NCBI GenBank assembly: GCA_963805065.1
Contig: CAWDSS010000012.1
Span: 108,174 to 172,173 of the forward strand
Length of the DNA stretch: 64,000 nt
Direction: 5' to 3'
Source: Candidatus Omnitrophota bacterium
GTDB taxonomy: Bacteria; Omnitrophota; Gorgyraeia; Gygaellales; Profunditerraquicolaceae
The notes beneath the pieces are model-generated. The model had not been told where the DNA came from, ran no database searches, and saw only the letters and a program-made list of their open reading frames with translations. The number at the start of each line of letters is the position of its first letter. Position 1 is the first letter of the stretch. Positions 28,583 to 49,110 of the stretch are shown here, in pieces. Both the position numbers and the translations under genes were made by a program.

Positions 28583-30490
28583 TTATTTATATTCTAGGTT
28601 AATGTTGAAGCTTTTTTCCTTTTCATTAATCTCTCCGGGAAAAGCGGGGAACGGGGAGACATTTTTTATGGCATTTATTGCCGTTTGATTCAGATCTTGA
28701 TTAGACGAAGATGTAACCCTGGGCTCATTGATCAATTGTCCATTTGAATTAAGCATAAAAGAAACCACGACTTCGCCTTTTCGAGATTTGTGGTCAGCCA
28801 GAGAATTCAACCTTATCTTATCAAATACTGCTTTTTTGTATTCTTCAACACTCTTAGGTTCTTGGCTATGTTTCTTTTGCTCTTCTTTTGCGATGGTCTG
28901 TATAAAAGCAATATCCTTGTTCTGTGTTAAGTTGGAATATTCCACAGGCTCCCTACCTGAAACAATACGAGGAGTAATAAATATGACTAACTCGCTTTTT
29001 AATGTTTCTTTTTTTGTGCTTCTAAATAGAAGCGGCCCTAAAAATGGAATGTCCCCCAAAATCGGTATTTTATTTATTTGGATGTTCTGTTGATCTTTTT
29101 TTAGCCCCGCGATGATTATAGTAGCCCCGTCCTGGACCATAACTGTTGTTTCAGATTCTGAAGTTGTAACTATCGGGACTTGAGTTATCTGGCCTTCTGA
29201 TGTTAAATCCGTAAGCGTAGCCGAGCTTATCTCAGGCTTTATTTTCATAATTACGAATCCATCCCGGTTAATAGTCGGGGTTACATAAAGCTTAATTCCT
29301 ACGTCGACAAAATTAACGCTCTGAGATGTTACGGCTGTTCCCGTCCCCCCTTGAGAAGTAGTAGAAGTTATATAAGCATCTTTTGTCCCCACGAGAATTT
29401 TTGCTTCCTGATTATTTAAAACCATAATCCGGGGGCTGGAAAGAATTTTTGTCTCGCCGATTAATTGAAGCATTGATAGTAAACCTGCAAATTGCCCTGG
29501 AGCGGTTGGAGTAGCGATGGGGCTTGCAGCTGCAACTCCCACAGCTAATAAGTTAGGTATAGTTGAAGCATCGGTAAGCGAGAGCGCGGGCATTTGAGAT
29601 GCTAAGTTAAAATTCTTTTTTATCCAGTAATCCCAATTTACTCCCATTGAATATTCATTGAAGGGAGTTATTTCGACAATTTGCGCGTCAATTAAAACCT
29701 GCGGAGTCCTTTCATCAAACGCACTGATAATCTTGGCTATCTCATCCAATTTTTCCGGATAATCTGTAATCGCAATCTTATTCGTTCTCTCGTCGATTCT
29801 CATGGAACCCAGGTTCTTGGTTATTGATTCCTGTAACTTCGGCTGAATTTTTTCCGCCTGGGCATAGTTCAGAGAAAAAACCCTAGTCTGAAGTGCTAAG
29901 TCCGTAGTCGTGACAAATTCCTCCATCTCCTTAATTTTTTCCGGAGTATCTACAAGCGCTAAGGTGTTCGAGGCATCATCAGCCACTATCCTGCCCAAAT
30001 TGGTCTTTATCTGGGTCAGCGACCTGGCTAAATCCGCTGCCTTGGCAAATTTAAGATGGATGATTTTCGCCTGTTTTTTATCCTGGAAACGCTCGCCGTA
30101 ATGTAACTCATAATCCCTTTGCGTCATGACATTGATGATATCGCCTTTTCTCTCGTAAGCTAAGTCATTAGCCAAAAGTATTATTTCAAAAGCATCCCAG
30201 AGGTCCACGTTCTTCAAAAAGAGGGTGACTTTTCCCGTAACGCTTTTACCCATTACTATGTTCAGACCTGAACGCGTAGACAGCATTTTCATCACATCTA
30301 CAATATCCATGCCTTTTATATCCAATGATATTTTATTTTGTATAACTTTCTGGTCTTGGGCAAATGAGGGATTAACAGCGAATGCCAAAACGCAAATAAC
30401 TACACAAGAACACAAGAACACAAGAACACAAGAACGGTTCTTGAGTTTTTGAGTCAAATTTAAATCTTGGATTTTGGATTTATTTTCCAT
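28583..30490 (-). CDS. secretin (GspD/PilQ family) with C-terminal TonB-C-like domain
   Basis: Start set at MENKSKI (GGAGGG RBS). Signal peptide ends SFA-QDQ. N0/N1-like domains. Secretin core (LNNQEAKILVG, VDVGIKLYVTPTIN, KIPILGDIPFLGPLF, ELVIFITPRIV). The last ~95 aa read KGEVVVSFMLNSNGQLINEPRVTSSSNQDLNQTAINAIKNVSPFPAFP, which is TonB-C-like. Confidence 0.85.
   Translation of the reverse strand: MENKSKIQDLNLTQKLKNRSCVLVFLCSCVVICVLAFAVNPSFAQDQKVIQNKISLDIKGMDIVDVMKMLSTRSGLNIVMGKSVTGKVTLFLKNVDLWDAFEIILLANDLAYERKGDIINVMTQRDYELHYGERFQDKKQAKIIHLKFAKAADLARSLTQIKTNLGRIVADDASNTLALVDTPEKIKEMEEFVTTTDLALQTRVFSLNYAQAEKIQPKLQESITKNLGSMRIDERTNKIAITDYPEKLDEIAKIISAFDERTPQVLIDAQIVEITPFNEYSMGVNWDYWIKKNFNLASQMPALSLTDASTIPNLLAVGVAAASPIATPTAPGQFAGLLSMLQLIGETKILSSPRIMVLNNQEAKILVGTKDAYITSTTSQGGTGTAVTSQSVNFVDVGIKLYVTPTINRDGFVIMKIKPEISSATLTDLTSEGQITQVPIVTTSESETTVMVQDGATIIIAGLKKDQQNIQINKIPILGDIPFLGPLLFRSTKKETLKSELVIFITPRIVSGREPVEYSNLTQNKDIAFIQTIAKEEQKKHSQEPKSVEEYKKAVFDKIRLNSLADHKSRKGEVVVSFMLNSNGQLINEPRVTSSSNQDLNQTAINAIKNVSPFPAFPGEINEKEKSFNINLEYK
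30403..30434. repeat. octanucleotide tandem repeat CACAAGAA x4 in the secretin signal-peptide coding region
   Basis: cacaagaa x4, followed by cggttcttg, which forms the palindrome caagaacggttcttg. It encodes SCVLVFLCSCVV. Confidence 0.9.
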
Positions 30491-30500
30491 AACAGCCCTC

Positions 30501-31115
30501 CTACAAATAAAGTTCAAATTTTTGTCCGTTGTAATTTAGTATGATTTTTCCATCCTCTATATCTTCAACCTTAAACTCTCCGATGAACTGGCCCTTTGTT
30601 ACATAATATGTCTTTTGTGATTTCTTGTCTTCAATAACAGCCTGGGGATTATCTCCTGAAACTATTCCTATCAGGCTCATGTCTTTAATTAAATCCGAAC
30701 TTACAGCCGCTGGGGCCTTTCCTGAATCAGTGCCGGAAGAACCGGAAAATATCTGACGGTTTTTTACGCCTTCCAGATAGTATTCATAGGGTTTTGCCTC
30801 TTGCGCAGGGACATTTTTTTCCTCTCCGGGTTTTTCCTGAATTGGTTTTGGCAAAGCAAAATCCTTCGATTCAAATAGCGGATAAACAAACGTATATACA
30901 AGAAAACCGCAGGAAATAATAAAAATTACAACAAAAATTTTATTTATCCCTAAAATGGAAATATAATTATATGGTAAAGACATCTGAAATTTATGGATTT
31001 TACGCCCGGGCTCTTGTTCCTGTCCGATTGGCAGTTTATCCGCAGCTACTGCATGTTTCTTTTGGCCCCTTATCAGCCTAAGCAGTTTTTCTTCCGGAGA
31101 AGAATTCTCTTTCAT
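30501..31115 (-). CDS. GspC/PilP-like inner-membrane protein (HR-domain-like C-terminus)
   Basis: One TM helix (IFVVIFIISCGFLVYTFVY) and a Pro/Glu-rich linker. The C-terminal MSLIGIVSGDNPQAVIEDKKSQKTYYVTKGQFIGEFKVEDIEDGKIILNYNGQKFELYL resembles the secretin-binding HR domain. Confidence 0.55.
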   Translation of the reverse strand: MKENSSPEEKLLRLIRGQKKHAVAADKLPIGQEQEPGRKIHKFQMSLPYNYISILGINKIFVVIFIISCGFLVYTFVYPLFESKDFALPKPIQEKPGEEKNVPAQEAKPYEYYLEGVKNRQIFSGSSGTDSGKAPAAVSSDLIKDMSLIGIVSGDNPQAVIEDKKSQKTYYVTKGQFIGEFKVEDIEDGKIILNYNGQKFELYL

Positions 31116-31930
31116 ACTTGTGCTCCGTTAAAAATGAGTTCGTTTATAATCTGGGCATCAACAAGCTGCTTGTCTTTCATCACTAAAGTCTCCAGTGCAT
31201 TGTGGCATAGCATGGCAATCTTACGAGGATAGCCTTGAGTATGCTCGTAAATCAGCTTTAGCGCATCTTCGCTGAATAAGGGCCTTGGATTCTTATATCC
31301 TGCCTGCCTTAGCCTGAATTCAATCATTTCCTTAGTTTCTGACTCATCAAAGGGATTGATTACATATTTGAGGGCTACCCTGTCCATAAAATTACGTATG
31401 CGCTTAAGCTTGGGCAGCAATTCTACCTGTGCCATAATTACAAGCTGCAGAAGTTTATATTCGTTAGTCTCATAATTCAGAAGCGTCCTTAAAACTTCCA
31501 AATTCTCCGCAGACAGCTTCTGGCTTTCATCAATTAAAAGGACTATGGTCTTATTCTCCTCTACGCCTTTCTGGAATAAATATTTTTCCAACGCTTCCTT
31601 AAAATCCATGGTTGACTTAAAGGGTGGTGTGATATTAAACATTTTAACCAGGTATAAAAGAAATTGAAATTCCGATTTGAAATTGGGATCTAAAACCATA
31701 TGAAAGATAAAATCATCTTCATCCTTAAATGCCTGCAATAATGCACGCGACAAAGTTGTCTTACCTGTCCCCACGTCGCCTAAAACTAAACTTAGACCCC
31801 TGCGCAGCCTAATGGAAATTTCCAGCCTTTTTAAAATCGTTTCGTGGCTTGCGGAGCGGTAAAAAAAATCCGGGTCAGGGCTGGTAGAAAACGGCTCTCT
31901 TTCAAGGCCGAAAATTTTATAATAGCTCAT
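31112..31930 (-). CDS. ExeA/GspA-family AAA ATPase
   Basis: FGLEREPFSTSPDPDFFY, Walker A GDVGTGKTT, Walker B VLLIDESQ. COG3267-like layout. No peptidoglycan-binding C-terminal domain. Confidence 0.75.
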   Translation of the reverse strand: MSYYKIFGLEREPFSTSPDPDFFYRSASHETILKRLEISIRLRRGLSLVLGDVGTGKTTLSRALLQAFKDEDDFIFHMVLDPNFKSEFQFLLYLVKMFNITPPFKSTMDFKEALEKYLFQKGVEENKTIVLLIDESQKLSAENLEVLRTLLNYETNEYKLLQLVIMAQVELLPKLKRIRNFMDRVALKYVINPFDESETKEMIEFRLRQAGYKNPRPLFSEDALKLIYEHTQGYPRKIAMLCHNALETLVMKDKQLVDAQIINELIFNGAQV

Positions 31931-32150
31931 GCTTTATCTCTTCTATGGACTTGTTTTCTTTTCGTAACAAGCGAATTTTCTTGAGTAATTCAATGGTAGA
32001 ATCGTTAAAATAGCGATAGCGGGTTTCAGGGCTGCGGCTGACCTCACAAATTAAGCCGATTTTCAGGTAATATTTGATTGTATATATAGAATATCCTGAG
32101 ATGTGAGCTAAGTCTTTAATTAAGTAGATGTTAGGTAGTGGGTTATCCAT
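31917..32150 (-). CDS. small MerR-family HTH protein
   Basis: 77 aa. YLIKDLAHISGYSIYTIKYYLKIGLI...RYRYFNDSTIELLKKIRLLR. Confidence 0.65.
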   Translation of the reverse strand: MDNPLPNIYLIKDLAHISGYSIYTIKYYLKIGLICEVSRSPETRYRYFNDSTIELLKKIRLLRKENKSIEEIKHELL

Positions 32151-32151
32151 T

Positions 32152-32194
32152 GCTCTCTAACTAGAGAGCATACAACTTTTTTTAGAATTGTCAA
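32152..32194 (-). promoter_or_regulatory. internal promoter plus perfect 18-bp palindrome in front of the merR-like gene
   Basis: The minus strand reads TTGACA (32194..32189) - 16 nt - TATGCT (32172..32167). The palindrome GCTCTCTAACTAGAGAGC (32152..32169) overlaps the -10 and ends 1 nt before the ATG. Confidence 0.5.
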
Positions 32195-32228: not shown

Positions 32229-35200
32229 TCATTTCTTGCCTCGGGTAAGCATTTTACTTAATTCTACCATGGGAGTTAAGAGGCATCTGGTTATTTTTTT
32301 CAAAGGTTCTTTATCTCTTATATAATCAGCTAACTGAGGAGAAAAATGATAGTATGCTCTGATAAACATTCTGCCCAAATCATTAGTCAATAAGTAAGTA
32401 TCCCTGAATTTCTTTAGTATTACTACCTGATTAGCCATGGGAGAACCGTAACAAGCAGTAGCAATGAAGCATCCTCCTCCACCGCCACCCCCTCCTCCCG
32501 AAGAACTGCCAGATGCATCCGGAGTGCCTGCCAAATCAAAGGTGGAAAAGTGGTTGGTTTTTCCTTCTACCAGTTTTTCATCGGGATATATCACTGTATC
32601 AAACAACTTAGTCCATTGGCTAGTATTAGTATCATAGGTGTATAAATCCAGATTCTGTATGTTTATGTTTGTCCCATCCACATAGCCGTCATTATTATTA
32701 TCCTGATAAGGTATGGTTACGGTAGCTTCCTGGGATAGTAAGGTGGTATTACTGGTTAAGGATATATCCCTGTATTGATTCAGATCAGTCAGGCTTGAGG
32801 AACTGCTGGTTATCTTGTTAGTCAGCTTAGCAGGATCAAGTATAGTCATAACTAAGGTATCATTACTGCTTAATGCCTGGGATGGCAGGTTTATCTGCGT
32901 GCCGTCATAAACAGAGATTTCCTGAGGGCTGGTATAATCTAAGCTTACCTGCTTAGAGTATTCTCCAGATGCATTCAGGCTTTCCTGGGAATCAGGAGTA
33001 GTGGCCTGGTTGTTTATAGTTATACTTACAGAACTTGAAGTAAAGTTAGAGCTGCCAGAGGTAGCAACTATCCTTATAAAGTAAGTATTATTGCTAAGGC
33101 TGGTAGTATCCCACTTAGCACTGTAGGGATAGCTTGTTGCTGTAGCTACAGTTGTCCAGGTAGTTTGACCCTGAAGCTGATACTGGTAACTTACTTGCGA
33201 AGGTGAGATTCGTGGGTCAATAAAGCTAGTTAAGCTGATGCTTCCTTTTAGTATTTGAGAAGCCTGAGGTTGAATTATGGCTACCGGCTCAGTACTTAGC
33301 GAAGTTATCTTGATTTGCTTTGTAATTGTATCAGCTAAGCCGCTATTGTTTACGACTTTAAGGCTGAGGGTATAATAACCTGGCTGTAAATATACGTAGC
33401 TGGAGTTATTATTGCCGGAGCTTGAGTCTATGGTAGAAATTCCTGTGCCATAATCCCAGGTAGTAGTGGCAATGTTACCTGTGCTATTGTTAGTAAGAGT
33501 AACGCTTAAAGGAGCTTCTCCCTGGGAGCTGCTTAGGCTAAAATTTGCTACAGGCGTAGCCAGTGAGAGATTCTGTTGTATGGTAAGCTTTACTGTTGAA
33601 GTATAGCTTAAGCCTTGTTTATTGGTAACTTTTAGTACAGGATTAAAGGTGCCTGCTTCTGTATAGGCATAGGATAGGGAACTCTGGCTGTAAGTAGAAG
33701 TGTCATATACTCCCCGGCCTAAGAAATCCCATTCATAACGGATAATATCGCTAGAAGGGTTATTAGCAGTAAAGGTAATTGTAGCAGGGACAGTGCCTGT
33801 AGCACTGTTTGCGCTTAAGGCAACTTGAGGCGCAGCAGAGTTATTGCCTACATTTATAGTGATTGATTGTGTGGTGCTTACAGCAGCAAAGTCAGTTACT
33901 TTTACAGTTGCTAAGTATGTTCCAGCCTGATGATAAGTTGTTACCACATTGCCTGATTTGGTGGATTTATATTCATATCTTCCATCACCATTAAAATCCC
34001 ATTGATACTTGGCAATGCCTACCTTGGAAGTAGCGCTGACCTTAAAGTAAACTCTTAAGGGTGCTGTGCCTGAGGTAACACTGGCAGTAGCAGTTACCTG
34101 AGGGGCATTAGTATTGGCTTGTACCTGGATGAGTATGCTATAGGTATTATTAGCCCCTGTCTGGTCAGTGACTCTAAGGGTAGCTACGTAATTACCAGCG
34201 CTGGCATAGGTATAAGTGGTATTGGCAGTTCGGGATGATTTCCAGGAATAATTGCCTTTGCCTTCAAAGTCCCACTCATACTTTACAATTGCGCCATTGG
34301 TGCTGGAAGCAGAAGCTGTAAACCTTACGGCTAAGGGCGCAGTGCCGCTGGTAGGCGTGGCTGAAGCTGAGATGGATATGCTAGGAGGTATTGCCACGGG
34401 GTTATTAACGGTTATACTCACAGCCTGGGTGGCAGTTAATGTGCCATCAGTAACGCTAAAGGTTACACTATAAGAGCCAGCTTGCCCTGTTGTAGGTGTC
34501 CAGCTAAAGGTTTGATTTGAGCTGTTAAAGGTAGCGCCTGTAGGTAAGTTAGAGGCTGAATAGCTTAAGGAGTCTCCATCCGGGTCAGTGGCGCTTATAG
34601 TAAAACTGAGATTATTGCCTATGGTTACAGATTGACTAGCAATAGAAGCTAATACCGGAGGTCTATTGACATTGGCTACGGTAATAGTAACAGTCTGGGA
34701 AGCAGTTAACAAGCCATCTGAGACTGTAAAGGTTGGCTGGTATGTTCCAGCTTGAGTATATGTGGGTGTCCAGCTGAATACCTGGGTCAAGTTATTAAAG
34801 CTAGCTCCTGTGGGTAGGTTAGTAGCTGTATAGATGAGAGAGTCTCCATCAGGGTCGCTGCCTGTAACTGTAAAGGTTAAGCTACTTCCCTCATTCACGC
34901 TTTGAGCAGGTATAGTGGTTAATACTGGAGGCCTATCCACATTGCCTACGGAAATAGTTATGGTTTGAGAGGCAGTTAGTGTGCCATCAGAAGCTGTAAA
35001 GGTAACATTATAATTACCGGATTGGCTGTATGTAGGTGTCCAGCTAAAGGTCCTGGTAGAGGCAGTAAAGGTAGCTCCTGCGGGTAATCCTGTAGTTGAA
35101 TAGCTTAAAGCGTCTCCATCAGGGTCAGTAGCTGAGATGCTAAAGCTTAGGTTAGAGCCTTCATTTACGGTTTGATTAGCGATTGTGGCTAATACCGGTG

Positions 35201-39890: not shown

Positions 39891-39960
39891 ATTCTTTCCT
39901 TTTAAATTCCTACGGGCATCTGTCCATACAGCCTTAATGCTTCAAGGAAATTGAGGTGTT

Positions 39961-39992
39961 TTTTATGATTCCTTTTGGCTCTTTTATGATTC
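39961..39992. promoter_or_regulatory. two direct TTTTATGATTC repeats between RHH gene and giant gene
   Basis: Identical 11-mers at 39961 and 39982 (21-bp period), 70-100 nt upstream of the giant-gene ATG. Confidence 0.4.
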
Positions 39993-40008
39993 TTAAAGTA
40001 AACGCGTT

Positions 40009-40275
40009 TCATTTTACACTCCCGCAATTTTCCTTTAATTTCTGGATTATCTTTTCCCTTAATTGATCTTTAGAGCTTATGTTTTCTCCTGTAATATTTA
40101 ATTCCATAATAATTTCAATCAGGTATTTTAGGATTTCGCTGTAAGATAGTTTATGGCCGGTAGAAAAAAGAGAATCCTTGCCTAATTTATCCAAATATTC
40201 CAGTTCCTTGCGGTCCAGCATAGTTATGACCCTATGTTTTAAGACCTCATGCTCAGTGTGAACTTCATTTAGCAT
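40009..40275 (-). CDS. ribbon-helix-helix (CopG/Arc-like) small regulator
   Basis: ORF trimmed to Met26 (GGAGGA RBS 8 nt upstream). The pattern is beta-strand HRVITML, helix RKELEYLDKLGKD, helix LSYSEILKYLIEI. 88 aa. Confidence 0.5.
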   Translation of the reverse strand: MLNEVHTEHEVLKHRVITMLDRKELEYLDKLGKDSLFSTGHKLSYSEILKYLIEIIMELNITGENISSKDQLREKIIQKLKENCGSVK

Positions 40276-40540
40276 ACTTTTATCCTCCAGGCGCCTGCCA
40301 CGTTTTGTGGCAGGCCAACTGACCCCCAAAAATAAAAACCCTAAAGGCAATCTTTAGGGTTTACGTGTGTCCTTTGGCAACGCAGCCAGCCTATCCCTAG
40401 GCTCTGTCGCTTTGCCCCTCCTTCACTAAAGAGCTTTCGCCTTTAGCTCCAGAGAGCCCTACGTAGCCCGTCATAACTCTTGCGAGTCTATTAAAGGACG
40501 AAGTAGGGGCCCTAACATTACTGCTAGTTTGCCTTTATCA
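40276..40540 (-). ncRNA. structured leader / candidate cis-regulatory RNA (unclassified) ending in an intrinsic terminator
   Basis: GC-richer than its surroundings. Hairpins with GNRA loops (CTAAAG-GC-GAAA-GC-T-CTTTAG and GCCTA-GGGA-TAGGC), the conserved hairpin 40455..40512, the terminator at 40328..40362, and a second hairpin 4 nt before the RBS. TTGACA and TAGAAT hexamers at 40545..40561. Confidence 0.45.
40328..40362 (-). terminator. Rho-independent terminator inside the leader
   Basis: The minus strand reads AAACCCTAAAG-ATTGC-CTTTAGGGTTT followed by TTATTTTT. Confidence 0.7.
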
Positions 40541-40618
40541 GTAACTATTCTAAATTGTCAAATTGTCACTTTGCACATTAAGTATAACACATTTGTCCTG
40601 TTTTTTCAAGGCAGGCCC

Positions 40619-41146
40619 TTAATCTAGAGAAAGCTGCGAAATGGAGAAAATGCCCTCCAAAGCCTGGGAATTAGGCCTGGCATTAAGCTGGAAGTTTTTT
40701 ATGGTAAGTAAAAGCGGGGAATTTTCAATACTGAACAAAAACTGGAAATAACTCTCAATATTACCCTCAGTCCTTAACTCAATTAGCGACTCCTTATACA
40801 ATTCTTTGGCCTTTGCGGTTTCTGGCCTTATGTCTATGATTTGTATCTTTGCCTCATTGGCCAGGTTTTCAATTTCTGCCAATACATTTACAGATGCATT
40901 TTTTACCGCATTTGAGCGTTGTAATGTTTCGGAGAATTTGCTGTATTTTTCCTGAATAGAATCCTTTTGCCTTAAAAGCTCCAGGTATTTAGCTAACTTT
41001 ATCCTTGTCAATTCAATTTCTTTATTCAAGTCGGCATTTTTAGATAAAACCGGCTCGATAATAAAATTGAATGCGATACTTATCACTACTGCGCCGATAG
41101 TAACCCAAACAATCGCTTTTTCTCTCTTGCTTAGTATTCTGGCCAT
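40619..41146 (-). CDS. PilO/GspM-like inner-membrane assembly protein
   Basis: N-terminal TM (AIVWVTIGAVVISIAFNFII), a coiled coil, then a ferredoxin-like C-terminal part. It sits directly after the PilMN-like gene. Confidence 0.55.
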   Translation of the reverse strand: MARILSKREKAIVWVTIGAVVISIAFNFIIEPVLSKNADLNKEIELTRIKLAKYLELLRQKDSIQEKYSKFSETLQRSNAVKNASVNVLAEIENLANEAKIQIIDIRPETAKAKELYKESLIELRTEGNIESYFQFLFSIENSPLLLTIKNFQLNARPNSQALEGIFSISQLSLD

Positions 41147-41150: not shown

Positions 41151-42584
41151 CTATTTATTTGTGCAGTTTATTTCAAAACCTACCACTTCTCCTGCCTGGG
41201 TTTTTTTCTGAGTTGCATACTTCATTTTTATATTAAATTGCTTAAAGACAGGCGAATTCTCCAGTTGCGAAACAAAAGCCAAAACAGAGTTAAGTTCTCC
41301 GGTTTCACCCCTGAGTGTAATTTTACCCTCTTCGTAAATAAGATTCGTCAGGGAAATCTGCTCCGGGACAACCCGGTAAAGTTCATGCAAATAATCCAGT
41401 ATCAATACCCTCTTCTGGTTTTTATTTTCCAGCGCCTTAAACTTTTTTTCCATATCCTCTAAGGGTATGGCTTCTTTAGAAACCTTCGCCAGTTCAAATT
41501 TCAACCTCTCAAGATACTGCTGCTTGTTATCCACGTTCTTGTCTAAAGCTATTGCCCAGATTATAATAACCGAAGCTATCAATGCTGCCAGCCGCAAATA
41601 CAGCCTCACCTGTAGATTTTTATTTTCCTTTTCCTTGATATCCTTCGGAAGCAGGTTCAAAGTGGCCGGCGCCTCTTTTAACCCAAGGCCGATAAGGCTG
41701 GTAAATGAATTTCCCGAGACAATAAGCTTATCTTCTATCCCTTTTAAAAATTTTACTTTGGGTATATAGGATAAAATTTCTGCGGGTATATCTTTTTGGC
41801 TGTTAATTATTTCCTGGCAGCGCGAAGCTATTCTTTGCGGGCCCATAAAGACTATCCTGCGGATGGGCTCCTTATTAAGCTCCTTTGCATAAGCTTCCTT
41901 GGTTTTATTCACCTCGCTTATAAACAAGTTTTCCCAATCGCTGAAACTACCCAGCCTTATTGACCTGCTGAAAAGTAATTTTCCGTCGCCGACTACTACG
42001 AACTCTATAACCTCTAAGTCAATATCTACCAACATTACCGTATCTGAATCAAGGGGTTTTATATGGCGGTATAAATCGGCAATGCCGTTTGAGCTAGGGA
42101 TTATACTTATTTTTAACGGCCTGAGGCCTTTCAGGATGCTCGCATAACGGTTTATAATATCTTTGTGGGCAATGACAAGGAGAATGTTAGAATAGCCTTC
42201 TTTATCCGTGCGGATAAGCTGGAACCCCGTGATTAATTCATCGCTTGTATAAGGCAAATAACGGGGAGCCTGAAGATTGGCAATCTTCTCTATTTCTTGG
42301 GGGATTTTACTGGGAATCTTTAAATTACGGCAGGTAATCTGAGAACGCGGCAACGACAAAACAACCGGGCTATTGCCGTAACCCAGCCTTTGGAATACGA
42401 GGTTTAATTTATCAGCCAGCTTTTTATCGTCGGTATTTGGCTCCAGCGGTTCAATCTCTAAACCGATAATTTCCTTGTTAAAGGCTCCTCTTATGGCGCA
42501 CTTAACCACCTTGAGGAATCCTTCGGTAATCTGGCAGATAAAAACCACGTTACTTCTTCTGGTGATTATATCTTTAATCGTCAT
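41151..42584 (-). CDS. PilM-PilN fusion (GspL-like) assembly protein
   Basis: Actin-like N-terminal ~310 aa, then the PilN signature LNLLPKDIKEKE plus TM (LAALIASVIIIWAIAL) and a periplasmic domain. Confidence 0.65.
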   Translation of the reverse strand: MTIKDIITRRSNVVFICQITEGFLKVVKCAIRGAFNKEIIGLEIEPLEPNTDDKKLADKLNLVFQRLGYGNSPVVLSLPRSQITCRNLKIPSKIPQEIEKIANLQAPRYLPYTSDELITGFQLIRTDKEGYSNILLVIAHKDIINRYASILKGLRPLKISIIPSSNGIADLYRHIKPLDSDTVMLVDIDLEVIEFVVVGDGKLLFSRSIRLGSFSDWENLFISEVNKTKEAYAKELNKEPIRRIVFMGPQRIASRCQEIINSQKDIPAEILSYIPKVKFLKGIEDKLIVSGNSFTSLIGLGLKEAPATLNLLPKDIKEKENKNLQVRLYLRLAALIASVIIIWAIALDKNVDNKQQYLERLKFELAKVSKEAIPLEDMEKKFKALENKNQKRVLILDYLHELYRVVPEQISLTNLIYEEGKITLRGETGELNSVLAFVSQLENSPVFKQFNIKMKYATQKKTQAGEVVGFEINCTNK

Positions 42585-42623: not shown

Positions 42624-43574
42624 CTAATTTTCATGCCAGTAAATAACCTGGTTATTGCTCCTGTCAAAAACACATTCAATGCCATGTGTTAATTTTGAAT
42701 TACTTAAGTTGCCTTGGCTAAATATCCTGAAATAATTGGAATTGACGCAAATTTTTGATTTTAAACCGTCAACAGGGTCGCTCAGTATATTCTTTTGCTG
42801 GTCGCTTAACTGTTCTAAACCTGCTTCTAGGTTTACATCGGTAAAGATACCGCCCTTATCCCTGAATTCAATCATCGCGTCTAACAGCCCATCAGGATTT
42901 TCTATTGGAATGTTTCTTTGCTGAAGTTTTTTGACATAGGTATTCATTAATATTTCAAGGACCACCCTTGGCGCCGTATTTACATTAATCTTGCAATCTC
43001 CATCGTGCGGATATACCGAAATTAAATTTTTAACAGCGTTAAATTCATCTTCTGTAAAGTCCTTAACCAGCATTAATTCCTCAATATTGGAAAATTTATT
43101 TCCTTTATTATTGTATTCTAAGGGTTGATAATCCGGAATGCTAGCGCCAACGTCACCTCTCCATGCGCATATATTATTGGCTAAATCCTGAGGGTCAGCT
43201 GCTCCTGCATAGTCTAAAAGCTCGGTCAATAATTCAAGGGGTGCGGTATTTATATTTATCTTTCTCTCCTCGTCAATAATTTGCGAAACGGAAGCAAATT
43301 CATTCTGGTTATCGCCGACTAAAATTTTATTGAATTTTTCTTCGTTATCTGCCCATTTATCTATTAAAGAATCGACAGCCGGATCATCATTTTTAAGTTC
43401 AACAATTGCGACATTTACGCCTGCCTTAGCCAGATAAATGGAATTTAACCTGTCTTTCTGATATCTGCTTAGCCGTAACGCCAGAGAAACTCGGTGTCCG
43501 GTGCTTACAGCTAACATTCCTAAGATAGCCAGAATCCAGAGGCTGATAATTAATACCTGCGCTTTATTTCTCAT
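42624..43574 (-). CDS. gspK: GspK-like minor pseudopilin
   Basis: N-terminal hydrophobic segment AQVLIISLWILAILGML and two helix-hairpin-helix-like INxNTAP motifs (NINTAPLELL, INVNTAPRVVL). Confidence 0.7.
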   Translation of the reverse strand: MRNKAQVLIISLWILAILGMLAVSTGHRVSLALRLSRYQKDRLNSIYLAKAGVNVAIVELKNDDPAVDSLIDKWADNEEKFNKILVGDNQNEFASVSQIIDEERKININTAPLELLTELLDYAGAADPQDLANNICAWRGDVGASIPDYQPLEYNNKGNKFSNIEELMLVKDFTEDEFNAVKNLISVYPHDGDCKINVNTAPRVVLEILMNTYVKKLQQRNIPIENPDGLLDAMIEFRDKGGIFTDVNLEAGLEQLSDQQKNILSDPVDGLKSKICVNSNYFRIFSQGNLSNSKLTHGIECVFDRSNNQVIYWHEN

Positions 43575-44155
43575 AAATTAGGCAGATAGATTGTGCGTTC
43601 GAAATCCTGTTTAATTTTTCCTGATACGGTTAATTTTATATTTACCGCTACAGGAAATGATTTCTTGTCATCCCAGGTATCCTTCCATTTTAACTCAAGG
43701 CTCCCCGGGTCAATAAACCCATAGCTTAAGGCAAAACTATCAATATTTCCTGCCAGCTCCTGGGGCTCTGTTTCAGACCGGTCATTTAACGCGTCTTTAT
43801 CTATACGACAAAGCATGGTCAAAGTTTTATTTTCAAATTTATAATCAACAAAGGCATAATGTTTCAACATGGCGCCTTGGCTAAATTTATCAACCAGGGT
43901 TAATAAGCCCATTTCATTTGAACTGCCAAAAAATTTTGTTTCATCCTTGGAATAAGCGAAAGAATTCCTTAAATCCAGGTTCAGGCGCTCAAAAACAATT
44001 CTTGCCGACTGATAAATATCTATATTCTCTCCGATGTCTTTGTAGCCGAATAATCCGGTATTAAACGTTAAATAAATGCTCACCATTACCACGCTAAAAA
44101 TCGAAGAAGCAATCAATAACTCTACCAGAGTAATGGCCCGATTAGTTTTTATCAT
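43571..44155 (-). CDS. GspJ/PilW-like minor pseudopilin (prepilin-type N-terminus)
   Basis: NRAITLVELLIASSIFSVVMVSI, a prepilin cleavage/methylation-type segment. 194 aa. Confidence 0.6.
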   Translation of the reverse strand: MIKTNRAITLVELLIASSIFSVVMVSIYLTFNTGLFGYKDIGENIDIYQSARIVFERLNLDLRNSFAYSKDETKFFGSSNEMGLLTLVDKFSQGAMLKHYAFVDYKFENKTLTMLCRIDKDALNDRSETEPQELAGNIDSFALSYGFIDPGSLELKWKDTWDDKKSFPVAVNIKLTVSGKIKQDFERTIYLPNL

Positions 44156-44571
44156 CTTAAAAAGCTTTTTAGGTTAATTTCTTCAACACTGTTAGCCCTT
44201 TGCCAATTAACCGTAAAATTAATTCTATACAGCGTTATATCATTGTCAAAAACCACTGTATCCTTCCATTGGAATTTATTATAAGCCCCTGATTTTCCTG
44301 CCGGCTCTTGATTTATCAATCCTTGTTTTTCCTTAAATTCCAGCTCCTGTAATTTATCTTCCGCCAGAAAAACAGCCCGCACCAAGTCATTCGATAATCC
44401 GGTTACCCTTCCGGAAAAAGAAAAGGCCTGAAGTATTACGGTAATTCCTGCTGATAATACCGTAACCGTAATTATCAATTCTAGTAATGAAAAGGCCCTG
44501 GCACTACCTTTGAACTTTAACACTCCCATAGACTCCTTTAGTAGTAAGGCTGATGGCTTGCTTATTGGCAT
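44152..44571 (-). CDS. GspI/PilV-like minor pseudopilin
   Basis: ARAFSLLELIITVTVLSAGITVIL. Small (about 125-139 aa). The start may be the internal Met at 44529. Confidence 0.6.
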   Translation of the reverse strand: MPISKPSALLLKESMGVLKFKGSARAFSLLELIITVTVLSAGITVILQAFSFSGRVTGLSNDLVRAVFLAEDKLQELEFKEKQGLINQEPAGKSGAYNKFQWKDTVVFDNDITLYRINFTVNWQRANSVEEINLKSFLR

Positions 44572-44983
44572 CGGATAACTTTATGGTTACGTTATCAATG
44601 CTTCCGTCTGGATAGAAAGCGATTTGCGTTTGATCCGCAGCTACTTGTATATCTTGCGGGATGTACACAGTCTTTAACCGGTTCTTATCATTCAAAATGC
44701 CGGCCCAATATTCTCTCGCCCCATTATCTATATTGAGCATGAAAGTTTCTTGGGCCACGATTGACTGTTGGCGTAAATAAACCATATAGGATTGCAAATC
44801 TTGAGAAAAAGTGCTTAATTGTAGGCTGGTATAATTATTTTTTAGTTGAGGCAGGGCGATTGCGATTAATATAGAAAGTATGATTATGACAAATAATAGC
44901 TCAATGAGTGTAAACCCCGTTAGAAGCTTTATTCTGTTTTTCTGGACATTTGGTATTTCTAACGGGGTAAAACCCTTATTCAT
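44504..44983 (-). CDS. GspH/FimT-like minor pseudopilin
   Basis: LTGFTLIELLFVIIILSILIAIALP followed by a GspH-like LQLSTFSQDLQSYMVYLRQQSI segment. Confidence 0.6.
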   Translation of the reverse strand: MNKGFTPLEIPNVQKNRIKLLTGFTLIELLFVIIILSILIAIALPQLKNNYTSLQLSTFSQDLQSYMVYLRQQSIVAQETFMLNIDNGAREYWAGILNDKNRLKTVYIPQDIQVAADQTQIAFYPDGSIDNVTIKLSDANKQAISLTTKGVYGSVKVQR

Positions 44984-46191
44984 TATTTCGCAATTAAATT
45001 AATCTGGAAAATCGGCAAAAGCATGGAAAGGACAATAAAACCAACAACCAGGCCCATTATCAGTATTATCACAGGTTCTAACATCCGCGTCATGGCGTTT
45101 AAACTTTTTTCCAGCTCTTTCTCATAATCATCGGCAATGCGCTGCATCGCCTGGTCGAGCCTTCCGGTCTCTTCGCCGACAGCGATTATATTGGTCACAA
45201 ATTCTGGAAAAAATGGCGAAACCTTAAGGGAATCGGAAAAACTGCTGCCTGCGCTTATCCCTTCTTTAAACTTCAGGATTTCCGCTTTTAAAATCTGGTT
45301 TTCTACTACGGTGACGGATATTTCTAAGGAGGAAGTTATAGGTACGCCGCTGGAAAGTAAAAGAGATAGCGTGCGCATCATACGGCTGATCTCTGTTTTT
45401 AAAACGATTTTGCCGGCAAATAATGTTTTTAGTTTTAGGCGGTCAAATAAGATTTTTCCTTGAGGGCTTAAATAAAGCCTGCGCAATAAAAACGCGGCAG
45501 CAATAATTACCGCGATAATTATCCAACCGTAACTTTTTAAAAAAGCGGAAGAATTTATTAATATCCTCGTTGGCAAAGGCAAGACCTGGCCCATATCCTC
45601 AAACATGGACACCAGCCTCGGGACAACAAACATCAGCAACACGCATATTGTTAATGCGCTGACAACCAGGATAAAAAACGGGTATGTTAAAGCTGCCCTT
45701 ATGGAATCTTTGAATTCCTCCTGCCTTTCCAAGAATCCGGAAAGGCGTTTCAGGGTCTCATTCAAATTACCGCTTGCTTCTCCGGTGCGTATCGTGGCCG
45801 AATATAACCCCGGGAACAGTTTTGGATAGGACTCCAGGCTTTCTGATAGCGATTTTCCGTCTTTTATTTTGGCATTTATATCGTTTAGTATAATTTTAAG
45901 GAACTTATTGGTAGCTTGCTTAGCTATCATGTTAAGGCTGTTGGTAATATTTATTCCCGAATCGATAAGAGTGGATAATTGCCTGGTAAAGGCTGAGATG
46001 TCTTTTCTTGAGACTCTTTGAAGGGAAAGCATGCCTTGCTTTTCCAGGGAAAGAATTTTAGAGCTGATGGAAATGGGAAAATACCCCAAGCCTAGCAATT
46101 TATTTATGGCTTCCTGTTCGGTCTCAGCTTCTATTTCTCCCTGGATGTTTTTTTGGGGATTAATTTTTGCTAGATACGTATATCGTGGCAT
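44983..46191 (-). CDS. gspF: type II secretion / type IV pilus platform protein (GspF/PilC family)
   Basis: 402 aa. Duplicated GspF domain (SLESYPKLFPGLYSATIRTGEASGNL and PFFPEFVTNIIAVGEETGRLD). Three TM segments. Confidence 0.9.
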   Translation of the reverse strand: MPRYTYLAKINPQKNIQGEIEAETEQEAINKLLGLGYFPISISSKILSLEKQGMLSLQRVSRKDISAFTRQLSTLIDSGINITNSLNMIAKQATNKFLKIILNDINAKIKDGKSLSESLESYPKLFPGLYSATIRTGEASGNLNETLKRLSGFLERQEEFKDSIRAALTYPFFILVVSALTICVLLMFVVPRLVSMFEDMGQVLPLPTRILINSSAFLKSYGWIIIAVIIAAAFLLRRLYLSPQGKILFDRLKLKTLFAGKIVLKTEISRMMRTLSLLLSSGVPITSSLEISVTVVENQILKAEILKFKEGISAGSSFSDSLKVSPFFPEFVTNIIAVGEETGRLDQAMQRIADDYEKELEKSLNAMTRMLEPVIILIMGLVVGFIVLSMLLPIFQINLIAK

Positions 46192-47912
46192 TAATCTTCG
46201 GGTAATTCTTCCTGTTGAGTTACTCGCACAACTTCAGTAAGGGTAGTTGTGCCTTTAAGAAATTTGCGCAGGCCGTCCTGGCGAAGGGTGCGCATGCCCT
46301 GTGAAATTGCTTTTTGTTTTATCTGCTGGCTGGAGGCGTGGTTAAGCATAAGCTCCCTGATTGGCTCGGTTACGGTTAATATCTCATATATTGCTGTGCG
46401 GCCATGAAAGCCTGTAAACCTGCATTCCTCACAACCTTTAGCTTCATAAATCATCGCCTTTTCTAAATCAAAATCTATATCTTTAATGTGGCTGAGTATT
46501 TCATTCCTGGATTTTTCCGGGACCGATACCTTGCATTTAGGGCAAAGGACCCTGACCAATCTTTGCGCTATAAGGTATTCAAGCGACGAAGACACTAAAA
46601 ACGGCTCAATACCCATATCCAAAAGCCGGGTTACCGCGCCCGCAGCATCATTAGTGTGCAAAGTAGAAAAAACCAGATGTCCGGTCAGTGCAGAGCGGAT
46701 TGCTATTTCGGCAGTCTCGTAATCCCTGACCTCTCCTACCATCATTACGTCGGGATCATGCCTTAACATGTGGCGAAGTGCCGTAGCAAAAGTAAATCCT
46801 ATTTGCGGAATAACCTGGACCTGATTAACTCCTCTTAACTGGTATTCCACGGGATCCTCAATGGTTATAATTTTTACAGCCGAAGAATTTATGCGCGATA
46901 GGCAGGCATACAAAGTAGTTGATTTTCCTGAACCAGTCGGGCCTGTTACAAAGATAATGCCATGCGGTTTTTTTATTGCCTGTTCAATAATCTTAAGGTC
47001 TTCCTGTAATAAACCCAGTTTTTCCAGCTCAAGGAACAACGCAGAGCTTAAAATCCTGATATGCACAGACTCTCCGAATGACGTAGGTATAATGGAAACA
47101 CGCAGGTCCAGCTCCTGCTCATTAACCTTTATCTTAATCCTTCCATCCTGGGGGAGCCTGCGCTCTGCAATATTAAGGCCGGACATAATCTTTATACGGG
47201 AAACTATGGCAGGATGAAAATATTTAATCGTCTCCGGTATGTTAACGTCGTAAAGCACGCCGTCTATCCTGAACCTGGTGCGCAATTCCTGATAAAAAGG
47301 CTCAAGGTGAATATCAGTAGCCCGGTCTTTTACCGCCTGAGAAAGTATCTGGTTGACGAATGTAATTATGGAAGCGTCTTCCGCCAATACCTCCAAATCC
47401 TCGACTTTTTCTTCGCGCATGCTTAGTTGTTCTGACGTGAGTTTCTGGTCGATTATTTTCTCCAGGGTTTCTGCGCCCACGCCGTAATACTTACGGATTG
47501 CCTCCTGAATTTCCGGCTCACTTGCCAAAACGCCTTTTACTTCTAAATTCAAAAGCAGCCTTATATCATCCAGAGTGCGGATGTCCAGGGGATCTGTCAT
47601 GGCAATGGTCAAACAATCGTTTTTAAATTCCAGCGGCATGATTTTATAGTGGCTGGCGAATTTTGCCGGCACCTTTTGGATAATCAAAGGCTCGATATCA
47701 ATAGTGTTTAATTTTATGTAGGGAATGTTTAACTGTTTGGAAAGCAGTTGAAATATCTTTTCTTCGCTGATATAACCTAATTTAACCAGGGCAGTGCAAA
47801 TAAAATCACCTGTTTTAGCCTGCTCAATAAGCCCTTTATCCAACTGCTCAGGCATAATCAGGCCCTCTTCAATCAGCATCTGCCCGATTAACACATTGTC
47901 TTTTGTCGGCAT
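46191..47912 (-). CDS. gspE: type II secretion / type IV pilus assembly ATPase (GspE/PilB family)
   Basis: N-terminal MshEN/T2SSE_N-like domain, Walker A GPTGSGKST, Asp box, Walker B, His box, tetracysteine CPKC...CEEC. Confidence 0.9.
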   Translation of the reverse strand: MPTKDNVLIGQMLIEEGLIMPEQLDKGLIEQAKTGDFICTALVKLGYISEEKIFQLLSKQLNIPYIKLNTIDIEPLIIQKVPAKFASHYKIMPLEFKNDCLTIAMTDPLDIRTLDDIRLLLNLEVKGVLASEPEIQEAIRKYYGVGAETLEKIIDQKLTSEQLSMREEKVEDLEVLAEDASIITFVNQILSQAVKDRATDIHLEPFYQELRTRFRIDGVLYDVNIPETIKYFHPAIVSRIKIMSGLNIAERRLPQDGRIKIKVNEQELDLRVSIIPTSFGESVHIRILSSALFLELEKLGLLQEDLKIIEQAIKKPHGIIFVTGPTGSGKSTTLYACLSRINSSAVKIITIEDPVEYQLRGVNQVQVIPQIGFTFATALRHMLRHDPDVMMVGEVRDYETAEIAIRSALTGHLVFSTLHTNDAAGAVTRLLDMGIEPFLVSSSLEYLIAQRLVRVLCPKCKVSVPEKSRNEILSHIKDIDFDLEKAMIYEAKGCEECRFTGFHGRTAIYEILTVTEPIRELMLNHASSQQIKQKAISQGMRTLRQDGLRKFLKGTTTLTEVVRVTQQEELPED

Positions 47913-47925
47913 AAATAATCCTTTT

Positions 47926-48717
47926 CTAAGAAATTTCCTTTAGCTTGTTGTAAACATAATCCACTGCCTGGGAAAAAGTAAGAATGCGGTCAGCTTCGTC
48001 ATCAGGTATCTCTAAACCCAGGGCTTCCTCTAAAACCATGGCAGCGCGTATTGCATCTACGGAATCCAGGCCTAAATCTTCATTGAAGCGTGATTCTAAC
48101 TTAATTTTATCGGCGTATTCTATGCCGAATTCCTGAACGAACATATCCTGCAGCTTTAAAAATAACTGTTCCTTGGTCAGGTGTTTTTCTTGGCGGAGTG
48201 CTTTTGCATTATCAGCTTGCGCTCTATGGGTTTTAATTTCCTGTGAGGTAGCTTCCTGAAGCCTGTTCATAAAATCTTTTATGCTCCTGGTATGGTTAAG
48301 GACTTTTTTCACATTCTCGGCCAATAAACCCGCTTTCCTGTGTGAATCAATAAAATCTTCCACTATCAGGTTTATCATATATACGTCATTGCCTATATAA
48401 TGCGTGAATAAATCTCTTAACAGCGGGTGCAGGGGCATGCTTTCCTGGAATTCAGGAAATTCCAAATCATCTTTTGAAACCACGGTCAATTTATTGGTAA
48501 TGTCTTTGATATGGCGGGTATAGATTAAAATCTTTTTAGCTTCCTGAGCGGGGATGGATTCATTGCCTTTAAGATAATACTGGCAAAGAAGGTTTATAGC
48601 CGTGATATCGTCGCCAATACGGTTATAAAGAAGATCCCAGATTTCCGGGTCGATAGAAATATTTTCCGCTTTTATCTGCTCGTAAAGCTGTTTTTCGTTG
48701 GGAAGAGGATTTGCCAT
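47926..48717 (-). CDS. protein with duplicated unknown N-terminal domain and C-terminal acyl-carrier-protein domain
   Basis: The C-terminus FNEDLGLDSVDAIRAAMVLEEALGLEIPDDEADRILTFSQAVDYV is a clear ACP fold with the DS(V/L) phosphopantetheine site. The N-terminus has two homologous ~60-aa units (ITAINLLCQYYL...TRHIKDITNKL and VYMINLIVEDFI...TRSIKDFMNRL). Confidence 0.6.
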   Translation of the reverse strand: MANPLPNEKQLYEQIKAENISIDPEIWDLLYNRIGDDITAINLLCQYYLKGNESIPAQEAKKILIYTRHIKDITNKLTVVSKDDLEFPEFQESMPLHPLLRDLFTHYIGNDVYMINLIVEDFIDSHRKAGLLAENVKKVLNHTRSIKDFMNRLQEATSQEIKTHRAQADNAKALRQEKHLTKEQLFLKLQDMFVQEFGIEYADKIKLESRFNEDLGLDSVDAIRAAMVLEEALGLEIPDDEADRILTFSQAVDYVYNKLKEIS

Positions 48718-48723
48718 TTCAGT

Positions 48724-49110
48724 TTAAAGGTCAATCTTTGCAGCTTCAGAAATGACCTTGTCTAATTCTTCCAGCTCAAGGGGCTTAAGTATGTAAGCTG
48801 CAGCACCTAATTGCCGTGCCTGCTCAATCTTACCTTTGTCAGTAATGCGGCTTACCATAATACAAACGGCATTATTGTCTATTTCTTTGATTTTTTTCAG
48901 GGTCTCAATGCCGTCCAGGGGAGAAAAAGGCATATGCACGTCCAGCAGGCTTATCTGGGGCTTTTCTTTTCTGAATATCTCAACTGCAGCAGGGCCGTCT
49001 GTGGCGCCAAAGGTGATAAAACCTTTTCTGGAATAAATCTTTTTGATAAAATCCACTATCCCTTCTTCGTCATCGACTATTAATAACTTTAAGGCTTGTT
49101 TTTCTTCCAT
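48724..49110 (-). CDS. response regulator, receiver domain only
   Basis: Start set at MEEKQ (GGAGG RBS). LLIVDDEEG, SLLDVHMP, IMVS, YILKP. Confidence 0.85.
   Translation of the reverse strand: MEEKQALKLLIVDDEEGIVDFIKKIYSRKGFITFGATDGPAAVEIFRKEKPQISLLDVHMPFSPLDGIETLKKIKEIDNNAVCIMVSRITDKGKIEQARQLGAAAYILKPLELEELDKVISEAAKIDL

Follow-up and report, generated by a model that had tools for sequence, protein, structure and literature searches.

The 64,000-nucleotide stretch of DNA analysed here (hereafter the window), positions 108,174 to 172,173 of contig CAWDSS010000012.1 from a Candidatus Omnitrophota bacterium (assembly GCA_963805065.1), contains a block of genes (28.5 to 49.1 kb, every gene on the minus strand) that encodes a type II secretion-like system of the type IV filament superfamily together with a giant, adhesin-like protein of 2,553 amino acids (aa). 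The system recurs in Candidatus Omnitrophota and is built of two modules, the first consisting of the assembly ATPase, the platform protein, the pseudopilins, the PilM-PilN fusion and the PilO/GspM-like protein, and the second of the MerR-type protein, the ExeA-like ATPase, the GspC-like protein and the secretin (Table 1). Pfam and NCBIfam scans bore out the genes and the gene order listed in an initial annotation, save for one small open reading frame (ORF) that had been labelled a ribbon-helix-helix (RHH) regulator; the Pfam scans of the window took in most ORFs, leaving out those at 8750-10603, 16284-18218, 23123-23905, 60524-61975 and 61983-63194.

For comparison we used 95 related loci, denoted by L numbers, of which 15 were anchored on the PilM-PilN fusion and 80, from metagenomes, on the ExeA-like ATPase. 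Every one of them was mapped using the window proteins as queries; L011 is the window's closest relative, and Pfam gene tables for relatives refer to the 21-kb neighbourhoods of L011, L012 and L014. The PilM-PilN fusion has 104 homologues (the window's own copy, 102 at 32-64% identity, and one outlier at 22%), and the organism named in their source names is always Candidatus Omnitrophica/Omnitrophota.

Table 1. Features of the gene block and its leader in the order of transcription, with positions in the window.
Feature	Position	Strand	Evidence and remarks
Receiver domain protein, stand-alone, 128 aa	48724-49110	minus	Pfam Response_reg, E = 1.4e-21; first gene of the block
Acyl carrier protein (ACP) fusion, 263 aa	47926-48717	minus	Pfam PP-binding at aa 189-255; NCBIfam acyl carrier protein models at aa 180-259
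GspE/PilB-type assembly ATPase with MshEN-like N-terminus	46191-47912	minus	Pfam T2SSE, E = 4.8e-135; MshEN, E = 3e-20
GspF/PilC-type inner-membrane platform protein	44983-46191	minus	Pfam T2SSF, E = 4.7e-65
GspH-like minor pseudopilin	44504-44983	minus	NCBIfam ComGD, E = 1.1e-15; GspH, E = 6e-9
GspI-like minor pseudopilin	44152-44571	minus	N_methyl motif; weak XpsI, E = 1.7e-5; GspI, E = 6.4e-4
GspJ-like minor pseudopilin	43571-44155	minus	Pfam T2SSJ, E = 1.5e-5; N_methyl, E = 2.1e-5
GspK-like minor pseudopilin, tip subunit	42624-43574	minus	NCBIfam T2SS_GspK, E = 1.8e-21; Pfam T2SSK_1st
PilM-PilN fusion in the GspL position	41151-42584	minus	Pfam PilM_2 and PilN
PilO/GspM-like bitopic protein	40619-41146	minus	Pfam PilO, E = 5.2e-7; NCBIfam GspM_XpsM, E = 1.3e-10; last gene of the inner-membrane module
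Sigma-70-like promoter candidate	40581-40609	minus	TTGAAA, 17-nt spacer, TG-TATACT, just past the PilO stop; consensus match only
c-di-GMP-I (GEMM-I)-type riboswitch-like aptamer	40374-40533	minus	Two extra hairpins between P2 and the GCAAAGC junction
Intrinsic-terminator hairpin	40336-40362	minus	11-bp stem followed by TTATTTTT U-tract; terminator scan; kept in L011
Small conserved protein, 88 aa	40009-40275	minus	Family found behind the riboswitch in L004, L012, L019, L043 and L062; also in L022 and L025
Very basic 36-aa ORF	39902-40012	minus	Overlaps the 88-aa gene at its stop codon; homologues by phmmer in L011, L019 and L022
Adhesin-like protein, 2,553 aa, with Sec-type N-terminal signal peptide	32229-39890	minus	Pfam, NCBIfam and N-terminus
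Promoter candidate of module 2	32167-32194	minus	TTGACA, 16-nt spacer, TATGCT; consensus scan
MerR-type helix-turn-helix (HTH) protein, 77 aa	31917-32150	minus	NCBIfam MerR-family N-terminal matches
ExeA/MshM-like AAA+ ATPase	31112-31930	minus	Pfam AAA_22, E = 2.3e-17; NCBIfam TIGR03015, 176 bits (cutoff 324)
GspC-like (GspB-like) bitopic protein	30501-31115	minus	Pfam T2SSC, E = 1.9e-4, and T2SSB, E = 2.8e-3, both below cutoff
Secretin (STN/N0, Secretin_N, core) with C-terminal TonB_C/TolA-like domain	28583-30517	minus	Pfam Secretin, E = 2.5e-46

Several features point to the type II branch of the superfamily: the set of G/H/I/J/K-like pseudopilins (G in the relatives), the GspK-like tip, the matches to GspM and GspC, the gsp order of the genes, and no PilT, PilA, PilY1 or AMIN. 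The best matches of the four minor pseudopilins are to GspH/ComGD, XpsI/GspI, GspJ and GspK, all of them below curated cutoffs; the strongest of the four is the GspK-like protein, which aligns with T2SS_GspK over residues 8-296 at 77 bits (cutoff 130). The GspH-like gene directly follows gspF, where relatives have gspG, and is orthologous to the gene that comes after gspG in those relatives; in a six-frame scan of the window it was the only gene with a strict G|FTLIE prepilin motif. The position of the GspI-like gene is likewise kept in relatives. Against GspM_XpsM, the PilO/GspM-like protein scores 41 bits (cutoff 60), and the GspC-like protein, in which a transmembrane segment and a C-terminal HR-type domain are visible in the sequence, has one other weak GspC match in NCBIfam (E = 1.4e-3). 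The ExeA-like ATPase is a short form without the peptidoglycan-binding domain and is 56-87% identical across 80 loci, and the MerR-type gene, at 56-81% identity among loci, invariably lies directly upstream of it. At the end of the secretin, residues 558-643 match TonB_2 (E = 2.4e-9) and TonB_C (E = 5.9e-9) in Pfam, the tail taking up about residues 546-644 (28583-28880); the TonB_C tail is present in 36 of the 38 complete secretins of the family (L003-L093), and a literature search returned no description of a secretin-TonB_C fusion.

Set beside the classical type II secretion systems (T2SS; Gsp/Pul/Eps/Xcp), the cluster shares the order E-F-(G)-H-I-J-K with an L-like and then an M-like gene behind it, the GspK-like tip, the GspC-like HR protein, the secretin, the ExeA-like ATPase beside the secretin gene, and candidate substrates that bear Sec signals and are encoded beside or inside the cluster. 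In Klebsiella the substrate gene pulA lies beside pulC-O, and ExeA/ExeB (GspA/GspB) form an accessory pair in Aeromonas and Vibrio. Unlike the classical systems, however, the L position is taken by a PilM-PilN protein recognisable only as PilM and PilN, the ATPase bears an MshEN-like N-domain and resembles PilB and GspE equally closely, the ExeA-like protein is without its peptidoglycan-binding domain, the secretin has a C-terminal TonB_C-like domain, genes C and D stand at the 3' end behind the MerR-type gene, and gspG is absent in the window lineage. The suggestion that the composition matches neither T2SS nor type IVa pilus operons was not upheld, since the genes follow the canonical gsp order E-F-(G)-H-I-J-K-L-M, then an A, B/C, D module. 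Every component nonetheless falls below the NCBIfam equivalog cutoffs, and from the sequences we place the cluster within the type IV filament superfamily as a divergent, type II-like member, without calling it a certified T2SS.

The same gene set could also encode a genuine type IVa or MSH surface pilus used for adhesion, with the giant adhesin as an independently exported attachment partner, but we regard this as clearly unlikely. The ATPase scores below cutoff against both GspE (610.9 bits, cutoff 630) and PilB (607.5 bits) in NCBIfam; its nearest neighbour by sequence in the PDB, and so among solved ATPases, is PilB of M. xanthus (533 bits, versus 408 for EpsE), and when the core alone is compared (residues 169-570) an EpsE construct reaches 394 bits versus 362 for the PilF ATPase domain (residues 180-563). 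The platform protein fits GspF (380.8 bits, cutoff 424) better than PilC (309.8 bits), and the secretin almost reaches the PilQ cutoff (283.5 of 284.35 bits), ahead of GspD (259.9 bits) and MshL (181.7 bits, cutoff 250). Further in favour of a pilus are the Pfam matches to PilM, PilN and PilO, and the ExeA-like ATPase, which occurs in MSH pilus operons too, as MshM. Published structures underlie the equivalence of GspL with PilM plus PilN, and the PDB sequence matches of the fusion are to PilM only, with none to GspL. The MSHA and type IVa pili thus have in common with the cluster an MshEN-type N-domain, an ExeA-like (MshM-like) ATPase, homologues of PilM, PilN and PilO, and a PilQ-like secretin core; type-4a pilus clusters were moreover found with TXSScan in nearly all Omnitrophota, and Tad clusters across the phylum (Seymour et al., PMC10066038). 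Against a pilus, no PilT/PilU, PilA-type major pilin, lipoprotein PilP, PilY1 or AMIN domain was found in the Pfam-scanned ORFs of the window or in the Pfam-tabulated loci, there is no MshA-type pilin, and the only similarities to the MSHA operon are to MshE, MshM and MshL, with no TPR protein MshN and no Msh pilins. The pseudopilins are G/H/I/J/K-like, a GspK-like tip and a GspC-like HR protein are present, the major subunit of the family matches Pfam T2SSG and bears the NCBI name 'type II secretion system major pseudopilin GspG', and the gene order is that of gsp, not of msh or pil operons. Candidate PilT-like genes downstream of the secretin (ORFs of ~390 aa, which were not scanned against Pfam) did not look PilT-like by eye.

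The major pseudopilin is nevertheless missing from the window. As initially reported, we found neither a GspG/PilA-like major subunit, which was sought across the 64 kb by motif scan, Pfam and tblastn with two family GspG proteins (best E = 0.017), nor a GspO/PilD peptidase, Peptidase_A24 being absent from the Pfam-scanned ORFs of the window and from the 21-kb neighbourhoods of L011, L012 and L014. It is not unusual for systems of this kind to have no prepilin peptidase gene within the cluster. By contrast with the window, gspG lies behind gspF in 24 of the 26 related loci in which this position is covered, and in 26 of 28 if we count two partial loci in which its 3' end is visible. It is absent from its place only in the window, L011 and L050, and in all three gspF abuts the H-like gene. 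L050 (3916-5625) is distantly related, with a PilM-PilN protein only 37% identical, so that from these sequences the gspG-less state appears to have arisen at least twice; the major subunit is likely encoded elsewhere in the genome. A system that is decaying or repurposed in the sublineage of the window and L011, with no pseudopilus and with the giant gene sitting in a relic locus, would also explain a gspG lost without remnant from a place where nearly all relatives keep it, and not found in 64 kb. We consider this very improbable indeed: the remaining genes are intact and 55-91% identical between the window and L011, which argues for purifying selection, L050 is an independent gspG-less but otherwise intact cluster, and major pilin genes located away from the machinery are common.

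Across the relatives the dominant order is gspE-F-G-H-I-J-K-PilMN-PilO-merR-ExeA-GspC-secretin, and in 37 of the 61 loci informative for the PilO/merR junction the two modules are contiguous, that is, separated by a gap of no more than 320 bp. The division into two modules follows from their being unlinked in L026 and L043, where the merR-secretin module stands apart from the E-M module, and from a conserved promoter-like site before merR, which is 88% identical to L011 over 65 nt and is followed in the window by the palindrome GCTCTCTA/TAGAGAGC. L011 is particularly informative. Its proteins share 55-91% identity with those of the window (GspE 91%, ExeA 86%, GspF 82%, secretin 72%, PilMN 60%), and it agrees with the window both in its downstream flank (gatC, gatA, gatB, ctpA) and in its upstream receiver and ACP-fusion genes, which accompany the cluster only in these two among the 95 loci; its PilO-merR spacer of 595 bp is without a giant gene. 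The initial annotation had pictured a machine whose inner- and outer-membrane halves are separated by the giant gene and which would be dedicated to the giant protein. A gene does lie between the halves, but the split is merely the boundary of two modules, empty in most relatives, and the uninterrupted clusters of L011 and the 37 loci contradict a machine built around that gene. The window is thus a modest variant of the usual Omnitrophota cluster with a lineage-specific insert, not a new machine. One further locus, L002 (4288-11456, record label Planctomycetales), has the order merR-ExeA-GspC-secretin-GspE-PilMN-PilO, with gspF-K not detected between gspE and PilMN, and represents either a rearranged variant or a misassembly.

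In the other 24 informative loci there is an insert between PilO and merR, or a gene other than PilO upstream of merR, and the contents differ from lineage to lineage. L004 and L005 hold giant S8 subtilases (at least 2,189 and at least 1,387 aa, both ended by contig ends) with a fervidolysin-type prodomain followed by arrays of FG-GAP, fn3, He_PIG, PKD and cadherin domains. S8 subtilases also occupy the junction in L018 and L044, an M36 peptidase in L026, a cadherin/dockerin protein in L037, an FG-GAP/He_PIG protein in L025, and a 1,770-aa cohesin/InlB-repeat protein with a dockerin protein in L012; L043 has an FAD-oxidoreductase/Ig protein, a 1,044-aa Ig protein and a GH2-like protein, and L014 a DUF2339 membrane protein. 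With the exception of the DUF2339 protein, every insert with a complete N-terminus has a signal-peptide-like start. Occupied junctions are probably under-counted, because contigs tend to break inside repetitive giant genes. The junction is therefore a variable slot in which different lineages hold genes for large exported proteins, and neither the slot nor the riboswitch cassette described below turned up in a literature search.

In the window this slot holds the 2,553-aa protein, in which Pfam recognises four fn3, seven PKD, three He_PIG/Big_9 and two InlB B-repeat domains, along with four regions with no Pfam match; a search of the PDB with residues 25-350 and 440-830 gave no match. Within the gene, 35212-38825 comprises an fn3-coding repeat of 266 nt in four copies (two 98% identical to each other) and a tandem repeat of 270 nt in three, and such repeats are recombination substrates and likely the reason that related contigs end inside genes of this kind. 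Beyond the signal peptide no long hydrophobic stretch was apparent by inspection, with no transmembrane predictor applied. A Gly-rich linker leads into a C-terminal CFI-box domain (CFI-box-CTERM, NF041770; 96.3 bits, cutoff 40; residues 2474-2542 of 2553), which itself has no hydrophobic stretch of transmembrane length. Modelled from five sequences, this domain forms a compact bundle of helices (pLDDT ~87 in the core) for which Foldseek found no significant match in the PDB, and searching the literature for 'CFI-box-CTERM' yielded nothing relevant. By exhaustive HMMER search the CFI-box occurs in 29,308 representative clusters, nearly always at the C-terminus, in proteins of 89-3,234 aa; among the 95 related loci, phmmer found it only in this window.

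Such a slot could arise without any tie to the machine, if the boundary between two transcription units were a neutral hot spot that tolerates inserts by chance or through local recombination, and if the giant protein were exported or anchored in some other way. The loci without an insertion, the lack of a giant gene in L011 and the unlinked modules of L026 and L043 all fit a hot spot, as do inserts that are not cargo-like (the DUF2339 membrane protein of L014 and, in L024 and L026, the housekeeping genes that lie upstream of merR), and a second lineage-specific insertion adjoining the cluster in the window, with an RHS toxin and an AbiE pair, suggests that this lineage acquires islands readily. 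We nevertheless hold a neutral hot spot to be rather unlikely. Most inserts are signal-peptide-bearing hydrolases or adhesins, classes typically exported by type II systems; similar large proteins are encoded directly downstream of the secretin in L021 and L064 (in the latter a C25 peptidase by Pfam), and in L093 an unannotated 1,499-aa ORF follows the secretin; and insertions within module 1 are rare. A general functional link between the machine and the proteins encoded at the junction is therefore plausible, and to that extent the idea of a display or secretion system for the giant protein survives, with the signal-peptide-bearing inserts and the riboswitch-bearing subclade in its favour, but a system dedicated exclusively to this protein does not, as L011 has the machine without the gene.

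Between PilO and the giant gene lies a spacer of 730 bp with small ORFs. The terminator that had been noted in this leader was recovered by our scan, and the leader also holds a riboswitch-like aptamer upstream of it. A local Rfam search matched RF01051, the model of riboswitches that bind cyclic di-GMP (c-di-GMP), at 40373-40451 with 33.6 bits (E = 1.3e-4), just under the gathering threshold (GA) of 35. The L011 spacer aligns at 77% with window positions 40537-40318, and the RNAalifold consensus of the two has 47 pairs, of which 3 are compensatory; with two sequences, covariation support is thin. The fold has a closing P1 (GGCA/UGCC), a P2 capped by a GUAA loop, a pair of inserted hairpins, the GCAAAGC junction and P3, and the insertion of ~95 nt accounts for the low Rfam score. 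As in GEMM-I riboswitches, the aptamer elements (P1, P2 ending in a GNRA-type loop, GCAAAGC junction, P3) are followed by an intrinsic terminator and by a gene for a surface or secreted protein; unlike them, the window copy carries the two extra hairpins and scores below threshold. At the same site in six relatives, elements pass the Rfam thresholds with 35.6-71.5 bits, four of them as c-di-GMP-I (L062, 71.5 bits; L019, 62.2; L005, 57.6; L043, 35.6, with a shorter insertion in the same place), and two with the variant model c-di-GMP-I-GGC instead (RF03167; L012, 69.1 bits; L004, 63.0). An Rfam scan of 16 loci without the 88-aa gene (nine with other inserts, seven contiguous) found no such element. 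The leader aptamer is thus a probable divergent c-di-GMP-I riboswitch-like element, with the terminator hairpin as its putative expression platform; an anti-terminator pairing between the 5' strand of the aptamer and the terminator loop was considered and dropped, as it is not conserved in L011. Riboswitches of the c-di-GMP-I class precede genes for pili, adhesins and secreted proteins, for example Vc1 upstream of gbpA in Vibrio cholerae. On the coding strand, a scan of the interval from the giant gene to merR brought up no terminator, and the riboswitch may for that reason act on the outer-membrane module as well.

Two small genes complete the cassette. The 88-aa ORF had been called an RHH regulator, an assignment we could not sustain: it has no Pfam or NCBIfam match, a profile of seven homologues searched against the PDB found nothing better than E = 0.85, and a single-sequence AlphaFold2 (AF2) model of the monomer, which cannot show the strand pair of an RHH dimer, is all-helical, with four helices at low confidence (pLDDT 68). 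The family is instead linked to c-di-GMP signalling, because in L062 (15396-16142) a homologue is fused to a PilZ domain (Pfam E = 3.4e-9), in a cassette downstream of the secretin, and in L012 (12265-13403) genes for a PilZ protein and a receiver come after the homologue; the riboswitch of L012 stands directly before the gene for the 1,770-aa cohesin protein. The 36-aa ORF, conserved but missing from the initial annotation, has its homologues directly upstream of merR in L011 (12333-12440), L019 (9577-9717) and L022 (170-292). In L019 and L022 the riboswitch, the 88-aa gene and the 36-aa ORF precede merR directly, with no large gene, and L011 keeps only the riboswitch and the 36-aa ORF. One subclade therefore has the cassette as a resident of the junction; the giant gene either came in addition to it or was lost from L011.

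Taken together, these observations lead us to lean, if only slightly, towards a scheme modelled on classical type II secretion, in which the proteins encoded at the junction, the 2,553-aa protein among them, would enter the periplasm by Sec and leave through the secretin, their transcription being gated by c-di-GMP. The giant protein would be taken across the inner membrane by virtue of its N-terminal signal peptide and would then cross the outer membrane through the secretin, driven by the pseudopilus, in the manner of classical type II substrates. The aptamer and terminator would gate transcription of the giant gene in response to c-di-GMP, with either sign, and read-through from that gene could extend into the outer-membrane module as well. 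The major pseudopilin and the prepilin peptidase would be supplied from elsewhere in the genome.

Several points weigh against this scheme. GspG, essential in every type II system studied, is absent from the 64-kb window; by sequence score the ATPase and the secretin are as close to type IVa pilus proteins as to type II proteins, or closer; and, as L011 does without the giant gene, the machine is not dependent on the giant protein. The export of a protein of ~260 kDa through the secretin is proposed by analogy only. The CFI-box, which might have served as a signal specific to this system, is ruled out as such by its wide distribution and its absence from the related loci. The window aptamer falls just short of the Rfam threshold and carries its long insertion, leaving c-di-GMP binding putative. 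Control of the ATPase by the same messenger is doubtful: its MshEN-like domain (residues 1-62) scores 50.4 bits against NF053729, an NCBIfam model of the c-di-GMP motif (cutoff 38), but LIG and FIC stand in place of RLG, both arginines being missing, throughout the family (28 orthologues). MshEN domains that bind c-di-GMP have a pair of motifs, each 24 residues long, of the form RLGxx(L/V/I)(L/V/I)xxG...LxxxLxxQ (Wang et al. 2016, PMC5013675), and in relaxed form this motif matches one of 29 family sequences. The LIG/FIC change suggests altered or lost c-di-GMP binding, and the second-messenger link therefore rests on the riboswitch and the PilZ genes.

A bolder version of the secretion scheme takes the lack of gspG at face value. 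The window, L011 and L050 might then have a machine that works without a canonical major pseudopilin, using the H-like subunit or a borrowed pilin, and that exports or displays very large repeat proteins through a TonB_C-tailed secretin under c-di-GMP gating, with which ultra-small Omnitrophota could attach to or digest other cells. We think this quite improbable; if it were true, the junction slot would be a readable catalogue of substrates for an uncultured phylum.

An association between secretion genes and very large genes has been described in this phylum before. West-Roberts et al. (2023; bioRxiv 10.1101/2023.11.21.568195) reported an Omnitrophota type II/Tad-like locus, with rcpC, a Rotamase_2 isomerase gene and gspD/E/F, upstream of giant genes of more than 30,000 aa and preceding proteins with many transmembrane segments and SecA-DEAD domains, and a 2026 preprint repeats the observation (10.64898/2026.06.07.730766). 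Both loci belong to the same phylum and have gspD/E/F homologues and class III signal peptide genes near very large genes, in some loci with PilZ genes nearby. In contrast, the window protein is 2,553 aa long, has a signal peptide only and is encoded inside the cluster instead of after it, and Pfam scans of the window reported neither RcpC nor Rotamase_2. The window locus therefore differs from that locus and shares its biological theme.

Upstream of the cluster, the N-terminal region of the ACP fusion consists of two internal repeats of ~60 aa each without a family match. The HisKA_7TM-GAF kinase gene that stands directly before the receiver gene in L011 lies at 56582-58771 in the window, and the 7.3-kb island between kinase and receiver (49235-56490), with HTH_3 and AbiEii toxin genes, a 158-aa ORF, an RHS-repeat protein of 1,409 aa whose C-terminus is variable, and an F5/8-type-C/Big_7 protein, is the second lineage-specific insertion referred to above. 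Further upstream (58772-63194) are a LuxD-like acyltransferase-methyltransferase fusion and two genes, one FAD amine-oxidase-like and one ketoacyl synthase-like, that owe their names to sequence inspection and synteny with L011; the ACP fusion may serve a lipid or acyl pathway instead of the secretion machine. A few kb downstream of the secretin, L029 (10981-11182) and L017 (18813-18949) have cobalamin riboswitches that appear unrelated to the secretion cluster. The remaining window ORFs are, by Pfam, housekeeping, CO dehydrogenase/acetyl-CoA synthase (CODH/ACS) and signalling genes. The CODH/ACS delta-subunit and corrinoid-related genes at 13615-19550 point to a Wood-Ljungdahl-type metabolism, and the window also contains three clustered tRNA genes and a fourth further along (4205-4728; 12766-12839).

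Omnitrophota are uncultured and mostly ultra-small, and they are suspected of predatory or symbiotic lifestyles. For this phylum the locus family is a testable model of how large surface proteins are deployed, its elements being a conserved type II-like machine, a variable slot, a c-di-GMP riboswitch cassette in one subclade and a TonB_C-tailed secretin. No new kind of machine is required, the split by a giant gene being a lineage-specific state, and candidate secretion substrates can be picked straight out of metagenomes by way of the slot.

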